Shown here piece after piece: positions 2,773 to 4,948 of a stretch of DNA of 4,948 nucleotides. The first letter of the stretch is position 1, and every line of letters begins with the position of its first letter. Source of the stretch: a virus (Duplodnaviria > Heunggongvirae > Uroviricota > Caudoviricetes); IMG/VR virus record IMGVR_UViG_3300029650_000085; one strand, 5' to 3'. The translations under genes were made by a program, and so were the position numbers. Below the pieces are notes generated by a model, which did no database searches, was not told where the DNA came from, and saw only the letters and a list, made by a program, of their open reading frames with translations.

Positions 2773-3249
2773 ATGCTTAGTGGTAAAGACTTAGGCCGAG
2801 CGATAGAGCAGGCCATTAACAAAAAAATTGCATCAGGAGCCGTCAAATCAAAGGCGGAAATCGCACGTCATTTCAAAGTCCAACCACCATCAATCCATGA
2901 CTGGATTAAGAAAGGTTCGATAAGTAAAGACAAACTTCCAGAACTATGGCGTTTCTTTTCTGATGTGGTTGGTCCAGAGCATTGGGGGCTTAACGAATAC
3001 CCCATACCAACCCCATCCACTTCAGATACAAAAAGTGAACTTTTAGACATAAACAGCCTTTATCAAGCCGCCTCTGATGAAAAAAAAGCAATTGTGGCTT
3101 TCATCTTATCTGGAAATGCTACGGAGCCTAGTTGGGTTGATTATGACGTTCGCGCCTACATTGCCGCAATGGAAATGAAGGTAGCTAACTATCTGAAAAA
3201 TCAAGAATCAAAACGGAAAAGCCAGAACATCACCAAGACAGGAACTTAA
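2773..3249 (+). CDS. racR: RacR-type prophage repressor (HTH)
   Basis: 158-aa ORF with ATG at 2773-2775 and TAA at 3247-3249. HTH-like segment SKAEIARHFKVQPPSIHDWIKKGSIS. Length and N-terminus match my recollection of Rac RacR. AGGAG at 2757-2761 lies 11 nt upstream. Divergent from the cro-like gene. Confidence 0.85.
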   Translation: MLSGKDLGRAIEQAINKKIASGAVKSKAEIARHFKVQPPSIHDWIKKGSISKDKLPELWRFFSDVVGPEHWGLNEYPIPTPSTSDTKSELLDINSLYQAASDEKKAIVAFILSGNATEPSWVDYDVRAYIAAMEMKVANYLKNQESKRKSQNITKTGT

Positions 3250-3341
3250 ACTTATATGGTCCGACGGGAAATTCCTAGTTCCCGTTAGTTAACTCCTACT
3301 ACCTCTCCCACAAACCATCACCTATTAGGTTGCGCCCAAAT

Positions 3342-3364
3342 TATTAGGCATAGCCTATTGACAA
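3342..3364. repeat. Right arm of the 23-bp perfect inverted repeat (tattaggcatagcctattgacaa)
   Basis: Exact reverse complement of 2699-2721. Carries the -35 TTGACA of the rightward promoter. Confidence 0.9.
3345..3361. promoter_or_regulatory. Operator-like palindrome ATTAGGC-ATA-GCCTAtt, overlapping the -35 of the rightward promoter
   Basis: Mirror copy of the 2704-2720 site. Further half-sites ATTAGG at 3324-3329 and 3368-3373. Confidence 0.45.
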
Positions 3365-3386
3365 GTAATTAGGCATTTCCTATAGT
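3358..3386 (+). promoter_or_regulatory. Rightward early promoter (TTGACA-N17-TATAGT) driving the small ORFs, DicF and the dicB-position ORF
   Basis: -35 TTGACA at 3358-3363, 17-nt spacer, -10 TATAGT at 3381-3386. The operator-like site 3368-3384 overlaps the spacer and -10. Predicted by eye only. Confidence 0.6.
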
Positions 3387-3567
3387 TTTCCCATACCAAC
3401 CCATCCCGTCCCACACAATACAGGGCAATACCTCGAGTTACCAGGCAGTGGTCAGGGGTTAAGTAGCCAGCCCGAGGCGTAAGAACATGACGGCAGGGTT
3501 CAACTTTAATAACTATGCAGCAGGTTTTTGTTCCGCTACCCCGGCGTTAAGGGGAAATGAGGTCAGC

Positions 3568-3720
3568 ATGGATACTATCGAGCTTGGCAACAACGAATCT
3601 CTGGTATGCGGCGTGTTTCCCAACCAGGACGGCACGTTTACCGCGATGACATATACCAGAAGCAAAACGTTTAAAACTGAAGCTGGCGCGCGTCGCTGGT
3701 TAACCAGAAACACTGACTGA
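3568..3720 (+). CDS. Small hypothetical protein (~50 aa), YdaF/YdfA-like by position
   Basis: ATG at 3568-3570 with GAGG 5 nt upstream; stop TGA at 3718-3720 overlaps the next ATG (ATGA). The track ORF could instead start at 3487 (77 aa, weaker RBS). The shorter form is chosen on RBS spacing and on the ~51-aa length I recall for the homologous small proteins. Confidence 0.5.
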   Translation: MDTIELGNNESLVCGVFPNQDGTFTAMTYTRSKTFKTEAGARRWLTRNTD

Positions 3721-4052
3721 TGAGGTTGACGATGGAATTTAAAGATTTACCAGTACCATTCCAGGAAATGGCATCGAATGTGGTTCGCTCTCAACTGGCG
3801 ACTCTTGACCTGAGTACCGTAGAAAAAGAAACCATCGACAATATATCCGGTAACGTACGCCGAGCCTTTATCGGGCTGTACGAAGAGAAGCAGCTCTCTG
3901 ATAACCAGGATTTACATGAAAAATACTTCCTGGATCTAATGGACATCATTGATAAGGGGTTTGGCTTGTTAATGAAAAAGAAAGGGATTCGAATAGAACC
4001 CCTTGAAAATTACTTTGCAACAAAAAGCATTAATTCTTTTGATTCAAAATAA
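3720..4052 (+). CDS. Hypothetical protein (110 aa), translationally coupled to the upstream small ORF
   Basis: ATG at 3720-3722 overlaps the upstream stop; alternative ATG at 3732 with GAGG upstream. TAA at 4050-4052. AT-rich coding sequence. The 3' end overlaps the convergent 91-aa ORF by 23 nt. Confidence 0.55.
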   Translation: MRLTMEFKDLPVPFQEMASNVVRSQLATLDLSTVEKETIDNISGNVRRAFIGLYEEKQLSDNQDLHEKYFLDLMDIIDKGFGLLMKKKGIRIEPLENYFATKSINSFDSK

Positions 4053-4305
4053 GAGAATTAATTACAGACTTAACATGCTCTTTCTCATGATTGAAGCTCT
4101 CATGATTGAAAGTGCCGGGTTGAAGCGAGTCGATATAATCAACAAGACTCTGTCGTACGACTTCATTTTTATCCATAACAGATGCAAGAAATGAAATTGC
4201 TAAAAGAGTTATATCACTACGCGCCGCAGCATGTTGCAATGCTTTATCAAAATTATTAATCTGGCGTATCAGGGAGTTAATGATTTCATCATTTTCAGTC
4301 GACAT
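4030..4305 (-). CDS. Hypothetical small protein (91 aa), antisense to the rightward early operon
   Basis: ATG at 4303-4305 preceded by a consensus AGGAGG with 5-nt spacing; TAA at 4030-4032. One hydrophobic segment (ITLLAISFLASVM) and a tandem FNHES/FNHEKE repeat (DNA direct repeat ctcatgattgaa at 4083-4094 and 4099-4110). The track ORF extends to 4638 (TTG start) through a GC-rich Arg-rich frame that I consider non-coding. Confidence 0.5.
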   Translation of the reverse strand: MSTENDEIINSLIRQINNFDKALQHAAARSDITLLAISFLASVMDKNEVVRQSLVDYIDSLQPGTFNHESFNHEKEHVKSVINSLILNQKN

Positions 4306-4639
4306 TTCACCCTCCTGAGGGTTGGTGATTAAGGAGTTCTCCACGGGTGAGGTGGAGTGCGTGCGCCGGACACGGGTGAGCATCCGGCACTGACAGTTTA
4401 CTGAAAGGATATTTCCCTGAAAAGTCAGACCATAACGCGAAAGCGCCCGGCGAGGTAGCTGGTTCATAGATAGCCTGTCGTTAAATTTTCGTCGACCGTG
4501 CGTTTCCGGTTGTGGCAATCCGCGAAATGGCGCGGCGGTAAGTATGGCGGGGTTATTCCTTCCCCGTTGAGGACACCGAGTTGTCAGGTTGACCATACGC
4601 TTAAGCGACAACCCCGCTGCAACGCCCTCTGTTATCAAT

Positions 4640-4697
4640 TTTCTGGTGACGTTTGGCGGTATCAGTTTTACTCCGTGACTGCTCTGCCGCCCTTTTT
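4640..4697 (+). ncRNA. dicF: DicF-type small RNA (cell-division/ftsZ-targeting sRNA of the dicB operon)
   Basis: The sequence tttctggtgacgtttggcggtatcagttttactccgtgactgctctgccgccc (4640-4692, 53 nt) followed by TTTTT matches the DicF sequence as I remember it. It lies between upstream small ORFs and a downstream short ORF, as in the Qin dicB operon. Recalled, not searched. Confidence 0.75.
4655..4697 (+). terminator. Intrinsic terminator hairpin forming the DicF 3' end
   Basis: GGCGG (4655-4659) pairs with CCGCC (4687-4691), with internal CAGU/ACUG pairing, followed by a T5 tract at 4693-4697. Confidence 0.6.
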
Positions 4698-4700
4698 AAA

Positions 4701-4720
4701 GTGAATTTTGTGATGTGGTG
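4701..4720 (+). repeat. 5' arm of a long-range inverted repeat (potential 20-bp RNA duplex with 4831-4850)
   Basis: tgaattttgtgatg (4702-4715) is the exact reverse complement of catcacaaaattca (4836-4849). Flanking positions extend the pairing with G-U wobbles. Confidence 0.8.
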
Positions 4721-4830
4721 AATGCGGCTGAGCGCACGCGGAACAGTTAAAACCAAAAACAGTGTTATGGGTGGATTCTCTGTATCCGGCGTTAATTGTT
4801 AACTGGTTAACGTCACCTGGAGGCACCAGG

Positions 4831-4850
4831 CACTGCATCACAAAATTCAT
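4831..4850 (+). repeat. 3' arm of the long-range inverted repeat, ending 4 nt before the SD of the dicB-position ORF
   Basis: See the 4701-4720 arm. The GAGG Shine-Dalgarno at 4855-4858 is immediately downstream. Confidence 0.8.
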
Positions 4851-4866
4851 TGTTGAGGACGCGATA

Positions 4867-4948
4867 ATGAAAACGTTATTACCAAACGTTAAGGAAGGTG
4901 CGAATAAGCGGGGAAATTCTTCTCGGCTGACTCAGTCATTTCATTTCT
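4867..4948 (+). CDS. Short ORF in the dicB position, partial (N-terminal 27 codons; continues beyond the window end)
   Basis: ATG at 4867-4869 with GAGG 8 nt upstream (MKTLLPNVKEGANKRGNSSRLTQSFHF...). Lies about 170 nt downstream of DicF, as dicB does in Qin. Identity with DicB is not verified. Confidence 0.45.
   Translation, partial: MKTLLPNVKEGANKRGNSSRLTQSFHF

Follow-up and report, generated by a model that had tools for sequence, protein, structure and literature searches.

Genes and features of the window

DicF is among the first bacterial regulatory RNAs described, and the untranslated region that surrounds it has been treated as spacer. Here, we analyze this region in a stretch of 4,948 nucleotides (nt) from a virus of the Caudoviricetes (IMG/VR record IMGVR_UViG_3300029650_000085), which we refer to as the window, focusing on positions 4306-4639, directly upstream of DicF. 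We conclude with high confidence that this region is non-coding on both strands except for its first ~15 nt, that it forms part of a mosaic early-left leader, and that its portion 4498-4623 is a conserved plus-strand RNA located before a terminator in an operon that continues beyond it. This RNA, whose core folds as a four-way junction, is previously undescribed, having no Rfam family and carrying no RNA annotation in the records examined.

The window covers the immunity and early genes of a lambdoid prophage. Its minus strand carries a DnaC/P-like gene (208-954), an O-like gene (961-1908) and two more open reading frames (ORFs), one of them cro-like, and its plus strand a DicA-like repressor ORF (2773-3249). 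Just 3′ of this ORF is an early-left (PdicB-type) promoter-like site, TTGACA-17-TATAGT (3358-3386, plus strand), which agrees with 11 of 12 consensus positions and is the sole plus-strand promoter-like site within 3250-4948; the leader is presumably transcribed from it. A DUF1391 (YdfA-like) gene (3487-3720; Pfam, 96 bits) and an ORF of 110 amino acids belonging to a PHROG of unknown function (3720-4052) follow on the same strand. The next gene, a minus-strand “cargo” gene for 91 amino acids (4030-4305), has its annotated start abutting the region, and its product, the hypothetical protein WP_000102678.1 in NZ_CP019005, matches no Pfam or PHROG family. Its ribosome-binding site and 5′ untranslated region occupy 4306-4320 on the minus strand, with the Shine-Dalgarno sequence GGAGGG being the complement of 4311-4316. 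DicF itself (4641-4692, plus strand), composed of a seed and an intrinsic terminator hairpin, matches Rfam RF00039 over the full length of the model (76.7 bits, E = 2.8e-16), and dicB starts at 4867 on the plus strand; the 815 nt that separate this start from the stop at 4052 are untranslated on that strand.

In the Qin prophage of Escherichia coli K-12, ydfC ends ~340 nt before dicF, and homology with the window begins ~20 nt past the ydfC stop. Because the region matches this ydfC-dicF spacer, we identify it as the long untranslated, dicF-containing part of the dicBF operon. An earlier note on this DNA, made from the sequence alone, had read the region as a precursor or leader RNA abutting DicF, and this holds: DicF begins at 4641, no plus-strand promoter-like site lies between 3358-3386 and DicF, and the 5′ end of DicF is released by RNase E from the equivalent K-12 spacer transcript (PMC5069750, PMC9438474).

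A conserved four-way junction upstream of DicF

Alignment shows that only ~4498-4625 is common to the window, phage P1, phage cdtI and Salmonella phage F1055, the flanks being unrelated. The common part opens with a conserved block, GUGCGUUUCCG (4498-4508, plus strand), whose columns G-U-G-C-x-C-U recur in three alignments and which lies directly 5′ of the closing helix of a ~115-nt core (4509-4623, plus strand). In the minimum free energy fold of the window, this core is a four-way junction, in which closing helix P1 (4509-4516/4616-4623) encloses hairpin P2 (4520-4524/4531-4535), helix P3a (4536-4539/4575-4578) with helix P3b (4546-4552/4562-4568), whose tip is variable and whose loop is pyrimidine-rich, and helix P4 (4580-4585/4607-4612), which closes a nearly invariant loop of 21 nt.

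Three independent sequence patterns, applied to viral contigs, species-representative genomes and metagenomes, yielded further copies; loci collected for comparison bear L-numbers (e.g., L025). In a MAFFT alignment of 43 non-redundant copies, 94.5% of the cells are paired, compared with 35-65% when the partners are slid, and nine pairs show changes on both sides. A covariance model, R1, comprising 148 positions and 31 pairs, was used to re-align 56 representatives, 54 of them distinct. In this alignment, which was itself fitted to R1, 95.2% of the cells of the 54 distinct sequences are paired against 37-59% in slid controls, and 13 of the 31 pairs have changed on both sides (60 cells), whereas slid controls reach at most four such pairs; not one of 500 shuffles matches the real alignment on any of five measures. 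RNAalifold, applied independently to the 56-sequence alignment, recovers the same helices with 11 compensatory pairs and lengthens P4 on its inner side, where one position is split 28:28 between G.U and G-C. The window copy itself scores 170 bits with R1.

Individual helices illustrate these changes. Helix P1 reads GUUGUGGC/GCUGCAAC in some copies and GUUGUGGU/ACCACAAC in others, and P2 alternates between CCGCG/CGCGG and CCGCA/UGCGG, the two single-step intermediates also occurring among the copies. P3b occurs as CGGGG/CCCCG, CUGGG/CCCAG, CAGGUG/CACCUG, CGAGG/CCUCG and CCCGGG/CCCGGG, and P4 as GGUUGUC/GACAACC, GGUUGCC/GGCAACC, GGUUACC/GGUAACC and GAGCUACC/GGUAGCUC. Since the helices pair better on the plus strand (94.7% versus 86.2% on the minus strand), with G.U accounting for 10% of the paired cells, the RNA is assigned to the plus strand. 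Compensatory and wobble changes exceed those of shuffled and slid controls and, together with this strand asymmetry, mark the core as a conserved structured RNA. The covariation analysis across homologous prophages that the earlier note had proposed thus reveals compensatory, structure-preserving changes in 4498-4623, and its description of the region as structured is borne out by covariation for the 3′ third; the 5′ two thirds are weakly structured, with invariant stems and no compensatory change.

P4 can also be drawn in an alternative register, GGUUG/CAACC, which is pairable too, but with only one two-sided pair, and covariation favors the register of R1. In the window (4580-4613), the segments GGUUGUGG (helix P1), GGUUGUC (P4) and GGUUGAC (P4 loop) are each able to pair with ACAACC (4608-4613), and because these three similar 5′ segments share one partner, alternative folds are possible during transcription.

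Some copies in Shigella and in cryptic prophages of E. coli are visibly decayed (L156, L157, L159, L181, L187). In some of them, recombination at the repeated motif CGCGAAA has removed the 5′ strand of helix P1; one carries a mutated terminator, and in one a deletion joins 4436-type sequence to P2. These copies are consistent with a function that has been lost in cryptic prophages.

Distribution of the core

A 132-nt version of the core is present in 4,297 of 5,426 complete E. coli genomes, at 8,835 places and with up to eight per genome; among the chromosomal matches listed, no annotated feature lies beneath it. It also occurs in ~500 plasmid records, mostly of P1-like phage-plasmids, in which the core and its terminator head the ban operon and a few matches lie under “hypothetical protein” calls. 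Genuine copies occur only in Escherichia (coli, albertii, ruysiae), Shigella, Citrobacter, Trabulsiella, Serratia symbiotica, Erwinia tracheiphila and P1/P7-like phage-plasmids, while pattern matches in other phyla were rejected as chance occurrences inside coding DNA. Across 100 loci (867 kb), R1 finds exactly one copy per locus, and it finds no copy on the rightward (cro/O/P) side of the window.

The core does not belong to a catalogued RNA family. Rfam 15 returned only DicF and a sub-threshold STnc100-like match when searched with the whole window (E ≤ 1) and with four related loci, and it returned no match within 4306-4640 when the halves of this segment were searched in isolation (E ≤ 10). 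The DicF model covers 4641-4692 only, and the region adjoins DicF without being a member of RF00039. In phage P1, the annotated “dicF-like region” (NC_005856 68791-68892; L004 1553-1654) corresponds to the 3′ half of the core plus the terminator and not to DicF. The literature searched, outside which the phage P1 genome paper and Faubladier et al. 1990 lie, makes no mention of the conserved blocks or of this phage P1 region.

Terminators, linkers and operon context

An intrinsic terminator follows every genuine copy of the core, the exception being one visibly decayed Shigella copy. The U-run begins 41-136 nt past the second conserved block, and in the most divergent copy a weak terminator lies at ~115 nt and a strong one at ~310 nt. 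In the window, the terminator after the core is DicF's own hairpin, reached through a single-stranded linker, GCCCUCUGUUAUCAAUU (4624-4640, plus strand), that ends at the DicF 5′ end and holds the reported, A/U-rich RNase E site. Between helix P1 and the terminator, linkers of different lineages are unrelated in sequence and measure 12 to ~80 nt, or more than 100 nt when all lineages are taken, ~310 nt being reached in the most divergent copy. The window has the DicF seed in this place, cdtI ~12 nt and phage P1 ~7 unpaired nt; the L008, L010 and L032 types carry other linkers, and those of the F1055, Erwinia, Trabulsiella and Serratia types are long. The Rfam model of DicF finds no match in phage P1, cdtI or F1055, all three of which have the core and a terminator.

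This arrangement bears on whether the core is a scaffold for the biogenesis of small RNAs (sRNAs), that is, a 5′ “bumper” that would place RNase E on the linker after helix P1 and thereby define or protect the 5′ end of the short RNA, with core, exchangeable seed and terminator making up a modular cassette for DicF-family sRNAs of differing seeds. We regard this as somewhat unlikely, although several observations fit it. The DicF 5′ end (4641) lies 17 nt past helix P1, in an A/U-rich linker, and its formation depends on RNase E (PMC5069750); linker or seed differs by lineage, in contrast to a constant core and, often, a constant UUUGGCGG terminator hairpin; and stem-loops guide RNase E in the processing of sRNAs derived from 3′ untranslated regions (reviewed in PMC9438474). 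On the other hand, linkers as short as those of phage P1 and cdtI leave almost nothing that could be released as a seed, a junction of 115 nt whose long loops are invariant far exceeds what the positioning of RNase E would need, and the continuation of the operon, which such a scaffold would not require, is always present. SroC and MicL similarly have a structure just 5′ of the cleavage site that makes the sRNA 5′ end (PMC9438474), but their guides are simple hairpins, unlike a 115-nt junction that exists also where there is no sRNA seed. DicF shares with the core the ydfABC-dicF-dicB transcript, its RNase E site being in the last ~17 nt of the region (PMC5069750, PMC9438474), whereas the core is a separate module that is found without DicF in phage P1, cdtI and F1055.

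The variable linker also speaks to a regulated attenuator, in which the junction would bind a ligand, an RNA or a protein of host or phage, its bound or free state would set whether the terminator works, and the switch would lie in the two mutually exclusive P4 registers. A closed, aptamer-like, multi-helix junction with invariant loops and junction strands directly before a terminator is what such a device might look like, and the registers GGUUGUC/GACAACC and GGUUG/CAACC are pairable across the family, in 96% and 97% of cells, respectively. We nevertheless consider it quite unlikely: with an unrelated spacer between them, junction and terminator have no conserved alternative pairing, covariation favors one register (4-5 of 7 pairs two-sided versus 1 of 5), and Rfam returns no riboswitch match. 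A conserved anti-terminator pairing between core and terminator was sought directly and not found, the linker being too variable, and the core was likewise set aside as a riboswitch or attenuator on the grounds of the unrelated spacer and the Rfam result.

Downstream of the core, transcription units continue in the same direction. Among the distinct 3-kb contexts, 74 of 75 are co-oriented with the core, with 91% of ORF bases so oriented, and the exception is a chance match. In phage P1, the core starts ~30 nt after the C1-controlled Pban start and is followed by ~1.5 kb that lacks plus-strand ORFs and contains two transfer RNA (tRNA) genes. In cdtI, it lies ~270 nt past a promoter-like site (11 of 12 positions) that follows the cI terminator. 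The phage P1 arrangement, in which promoter, core and terminator would yield a discrete RNA of ~190 nt, raises the possibility that the core, with its terminator hairpin or without it, is released as an autonomous structured RNA of ~120-190 nt acting in trans, through protein binding or titration or through pairing of the P3b loop with Shine-Dalgarno-like sequences. In most lineages, this loop is indeed pyrimidine-rich (UUAUUCCUU, GUCCUCC, UCUUCCUU, AUCCUUUU), and the 21-nt loop of P4 is invariant. We find this explanation unlikely, as lambdoid prophages have no promoter-like site next to the core, some lineages lack the P3b motif (e.g., ACGCUUU, ACUCUUU), and no stable RNA of such a size is reported in the DicF literature searched.

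Both termination at DicF and read-through to dicB have been reported, termination at the hairpin yielding a species of 53 nt and RNase III cleavage of the read-through transcript one of 72 nt (PMC5069750, PMC9438474). Directly after the DicF terminator, the window contains a stem of ~20 base pairs, 4702-4722/4829-4849, on the plus strand, which encloses an STnc100-like element (34.1 bits in Rfam, below the gathering score of 47). Since the published 3′ end of the 72-nt DicF (PMC5069750) would fall at ~4712, inside its 5′ arm, this stem (4702-4849) is probably where RNase III acts on the read-through transcript. In cdtI, an analogous stem of 17 base pairs follows the terminator (L005 2176-2193 with 2247-2264), and phage P1 has an STnc100-like match at L004 2842-2961.

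The terminators themselves vary in composition. A DicF-type terminator hairpin (UUUGGCGG...CCGCC plus U-run) is found joined to unrelated 5′ single-stranded segments, such as CCCAUGUUGAUUACC and AUAUCCAUGUGUAGUC, and variant terminator units lie ~20-90 nt after the core in L008, L010, L032, L039, L112, L122, L128, L187 and L210; conversely, the DicF seed UUUCUGGUGA is joined to a different terminator in L032, L053 and L128. Judging from their sequences, these variant linker-terminator units could be DicF-like sRNAs with new seeds, although most deviate from the seed-plus-hairpin consensus. After the terminator, copies of the cdtI, F1055 and Erwinia types carry a second conserved block, ACAACAGAnAAGAGCAUCnCCGGnCGACGGGCUCAUAACCC, with a small hairpin CCG-GACGA-CGG (L005 2165-2235; L006, L174, L228, L262, L268). 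In the F1055, Erwinia and Serratia types, a Shine-Dalgarno-like GGAGG together with AUG or GUG lies within the terminator hairpin.

The open minus-strand frame

The earlier note had been struck by the absence of plus-strand ATG codons between 4306 and 4526 and by a minus strand free of stops. The former is correct, with ATG codons within 4250-4700 occurring only at 4280, 4527 and 4544, but two ATG-free runs in the window are longer than the resulting one of 247 nt, and 10.7% of dinucleotide shuffles of the region contain a run that reaches 221 nt (P = 0.11, not significant). The region is GC-rich in a relative sense: its 54.8% exceeds the 48.0% of the window, and its richness is that of 55% beside an AT-rich neighbor of 32-42% GC. 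On the minus strand, 111 codons upstream of the ATG at 4305-4303 are indeed free of stops, and this is mildly unexpected, with an in-phase frame of this kind appearing in 2.8% of shuffles and any open minus-strand frame in 8.6%.

A decayed or overlooked minus-strand protein gene is, however, scarcely credible. In its favor stand the length of the open frame in the window (P = 0.028 by shuffles) and public coding sequence (CDS) annotations over the homologous region, namely cdtI orf40, F1055_0036 and one in phage Evi. Among 39 distinct full-length homologs, 18 interrupt the frame, as do all copies of at most 91% identity; a common variant of 97-98% identity that carries one extra C in a hairpin (a +1 indel) is among the 18. 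Indels of 1-4 nt are located in a variable hairpin, whose segment measures 25, 26, 27, 28, 29, 30 or 31 nt across lineages, with no multiple-of-three pattern. Three-base periodicity, which the note had named as the sign of a real coding gene, is absent, the variable sites being distributed 29/35/37 over codon positions 1/2/3 (chi-square p = 0.60), and the 111-residue extension has no Pfam match. Thus, because the frame is broken in so many homologs and codon periodicity is lacking, the open frame is not a gene remnant, and the compensatory pattern and G.U asymmetry of the junction point instead to an RNA on the plus strand. Small plus-strand ORFs, including one of 68 amino acids with a GTG start (4498-4704), were also ruled out, given indels and the lack of a Pfam match.

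Since the coding alternative fails, the public minus-strand CDSs over the core are probably spurious. “Hypothetical protein” calls on the minus strand, made in public records and by ORF finders, cross the core at L005 2045-2500, L006 1784-2356, L218 4296-4487 and, in the window, 4030-4638. The indel pattern and the lack of codon periodicity indicate that such calls are artifacts of a stop-poor, GC-rich RNA element.

A mosaic 5′ module

Two features had escaped the earlier note, namely that the first ~15 nt of the stretch are the ribosome-binding site of a minus-strand gene and that the stretch is a mosaic of exchangeable modules. BLAST start points of related loci cluster at ~4306-4325, 4355, 4415 and 4506, and the left edge coincides, in several loci, with the start codon (CAT, the minus-strand ATG) of minus-strand genes with differing N-termini. 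Such cargo genes, which share the Shine-Dalgarno sequence of the leader, are found in the window (4030-4320, minus strand) and in L002, L052, L123, L184 and L189; other mosaic classes have a different minus-strand gene start and a hairpin containing the Shine-Dalgarno sequence ~50-100 nt upstream of the start of homology.

These breakpoints, with differing cargo genes abutting the left edge, would suit conservation at the level of DNA only, the segment being a recombination linker or the promoter or operator of the cargo gene, which needs a promoter somewhere rightward. A cargo-gene promoter inside the region was sought and not found: no minus-strand promoter-like site lies within 4306-4640, the sole weak one being at 4802-4775 on the minus strand. 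Conservation of DNA alone would also leave unexplained why G.U is tolerated in compensatory changes on the plus strand only and why the partnership with a terminator is constant, and we judge it very unlikely.

Between the ribosome-binding site and the conserved block, 4320-4497 forms a spacer rich in hairpins, whose conservation is limited to fairly close relatives (80-98% identity). Its hairpins have invariant stems, and compensatory changes are absent from all pairs predicted by the consensus fold of 25 homologs. The first, H1, read from the sequence and the fold of 4306-4700, pairs CUCCAC (4339-4344) with GUGGAG (4352-4357) on the plus strand (4339-4357) and is kept among close relatives only. 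H2 (4365-4388, plus strand) is the hairpin of the earlier note, whose arms GCCGGA (4365-4370) and TCCGGC (4383-4388) are located as described; the stem is invariant in the 25 homologs and the 12-nt loop is variable, such that the hairpin is real, but the strongest conserved structure, which the note had not singled out, lies further 3′, at 4498-4623. H3 (4390-4428, plus strand), from the same consensus fold, pairs CUGAC (4390-4394) with GUCAG (4424-4428) and has an inner stem, its pairs being conserved without compensatory change. A small hairpin read from the sequence, CGC-GAAA-GCG (4436-4445, plus strand), has a tetraloop of the GNRA type. In Qin-type copies, the segment around 4436-4445 is complementary to 4494-4508, and the consensus fold contains a long-range helix (columns 130-150 with 190-210) with variation of the wobble type only. 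The 5′ half shares the motif CGCGAAA..GCGC..GGCG with the core, but it was rejected as a degenerate tandem copy, R1 giving no match in 4306-4490 with filters off.

Comparison with boxA and other known systems

The block directly adjacent to the core has the GCUCU center of boxA, and its resemblance to boxA is partial when compared with CGCUCUUA of lambda nutL and nutR; the rrn boxA consensus was also used in this comparison. It reads GUGCUCUUUCC in Trabulsiella (where it was also read as UGCUCUUUCC), GUGCUCUCUUC in F1055, Erwinia and others, GUGCUCUCAGC in cdtI and Citrobacter, GUGCGCUUCC in Qin and GUGCGUUUCC in the window, and the versions nearest boxA are carried by lineages without the 5′ module. 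A second boxA-like signal appears in eight related loci, in which H2 is followed by a canonical or near-canonical boxA (UGCUCUUUAACAA or UGUUCUUUAAAAA), a minus-strand gene is inserted next, and the core comes 660-890 nt on. A perfect UGCUCUUUAACAA follows H2 in L025 (2815-2856), L039, L194 and L205, with which L044 and L156 were also noted, and five more loci have near-canonical versions; the canonical UGCUCUUUAACAA is absent from the window. In cdtI, the terminator 3′ arm with its U-tract reads CGCUCUUUUUACAA, which is also boxA-like.

In lambda and P22, a nut site consists of boxA (CGCUCUUA/UGCUCUUUA) and then, within ~10 nt, boxB, a 15-nt hairpin with a GNRA-like pentaloop that binds N. 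The core was rejected as a nut site, since GUGCGUUUCCG is a partial boxA and a large junction follows, and none of the ORFs of the same operon in the window (DUF1391, a PHROG of unknown function and one without a family) is annotated as an N gene. The complete phages Evi, mEp460_ev081, 2H10 and cdtI have, judged from annotation only, no N-type antiterminator in their early-left operons; none is annotated near the core either, where the downstream ORFs of cdtI look YfdQ/YfdR-like. As in nut and rrn leaders, the structured core is immediately preceded by a boxA-like block (GUGCUCUUUCC or GUGCUCUCUUC) and lies in a long untranslated transcript otherwise exposed to Rho, and the H2-then-UGCUCUUUAACAA order of its relatives is the boxB-then-boxA order of rrn leaders. 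Unlike them, it has a large junction in place of boxB, and the blocks of the window deviate from the consensus CGCUCUUA/UGCUCUUU.

The put RNAs (putL, putR) of HK022, a lambdoid phage without N, are antiterminators that need no protein and act in cis on RNA polymerase (through the β′ zinc-binding domain), suppressing pausing and termination. As with put, the core is a structured RNA of the early transcript, in phages without an annotated N, ahead of terminators that have to be passed, at a variable distance from both the promoter and the site of action; putR lies ~270 nt from PR (PMC9378689), and the cdtI core is also ~270 nt from its PL-like promoter. In contrast, put is ~70 nt long with two stem-loops, whereas the core is a ~115-nt four-way junction, followed by a terminator within tens of nt in nearly all lineages and at ~310 nt in the most divergent. 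The cis-acting antiterminators of Gram-positive bacteria (EAR, and conjugative elements such as Tn916; PMC11658703) are alike in being RNAs at the start of a mobile-element operon, upstream of an insulating terminator, but hosts and sequences are unrelated, and homology, compared through Rfam only, gave no match.

Other relationships were considered and rejected. Prompted by the four-way junction, the downstream tRNAs of phage P1 and a T-arm-like GGTTCGATTCC upstream in F1055-type loci, we looked for a tRNA-like or tmRNA-like element; ARAGORN found none in the window, K-12, cdtI or F1055 and only the two known tRNAs in phage P1, and Rfam gave no tRNA or tmRNA match. A likeness to 5S rRNA (helix III/loop C and loop E) failed on the order of the arms, on the unconserved 3′ strand of the P3 internal loop and on the lack of an Rfam 5S match.

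A possible role in passage of the terminator

The constant place of the core ahead of a terminator suggests that this RNA controls whether transcription goes on. The junction may act in cis on transcription, such that a share of polymerases passes the terminator and resists Rho along the long untranslated stretch, and we hold this to be a reasonable possibility that falls short of being probable. The domain would fold while emerging from RNA polymerase and, alone or with host Nus factors recruited via the adjacent boxA-like block, would make the elongation complex resist the terminator and Rho. A controlled fraction of polymerases would then reach kil/dicB, exo, xis and int or, in phage P1, the tRNAs and ban, while the remaining polymerases would terminate and yield a short RNA, which in the lineage of the window RNase E would trim immediately past the closing helix, producing the 53-nt DicF. 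Any antitermination must be partial, because the terminated 53-nt species of DicF is reported. The core would work like put, nut or rrn leaders without belonging, as far as its features show, to these classes: the testable defining features of put and nut were not found, and the canonical rrn-type boxA occurs in some relatives only.

Several points weigh against such a role. The core is not a homolog of put, the one well-studied phage RNA antiterminator: with filters off, the best R1 hit in HK022 27500-33500 and 22000-29000, the part where putL and putR lie, reaches 10.2 bits (E ~0.09) over ~50 nt. Moreover, put is present in both early operons (PL and PR), and the core only once per phage region. 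In the window and ~60 other loci, H2 is followed by ACUGACAGUUUACUGA and not by boxA, with the core ~200 nt on, and the core-adjacent block of the window (GUGCGUUUCCG) and of Qin differs from the boxA consensus and is also able to pair with sequence upstream. The fold of the core is no more stable than that of shuffles (z = -0.2; whole region, z = -1.1), and the sequences are mostly close kin, with the compensatory changes representing perhaps 8-10 independent lineages. Finally, a structured domain adjacent to a terminator fits an attenuator or an sRNA-biogenesis module equally well.

A broader proposal, which we offer tentatively and regard as doubtful, is that the junction represents a new class of cis-acting RNA antiterminator or terminator bypass, acting alone or with Nus factors, which takes early transcription past an intrinsic terminator and long untranslated stretches in lambdoid phages that lack N and in phage P1, and that it is at the same time the fixed 5′ module of a cassette of core, swappable seed and terminator from which prophages make DicF and DicF-like sRNAs with differing seeds. 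If passage of the terminator is what the core provides, it would join HK022 put as a second, unrelated case of antitermination by RNA alone in enterobacterial phages, it would account for the expression of kil, recombination and integration genes in lambdoid phages without N, and it would open to direct test how the toxic dicB/kil genes of cryptic prophages stay silent or are switched on. Whatever its function, the spacer around DicF holds a large, conserved, folded RNA; roughly four fifths of complete E. coli genomes carry it, often more than once, and its core is common to phage P1, where it has been mislabelled “dicF-like”. It provides a defined motif for annotation, by which spurious ORF calls can be corrected, and its surroundings show the DicF terminator hairpin paired with different seeds in different prophages.

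The dicB gene at the distal end of the window agrees with that of K-12 over only eight codons, and from ~4893 the window consists of the IS5 terminal repeat. The terminal-repeat sequence (window 4888-4948) occurs at 8,204 places in E. coli genomes, annotated beside the IS5 transposase. Because homology with dicB stops after eight codons and gives way to this repeat, the division inhibitor is disrupted in the prophage of the window.

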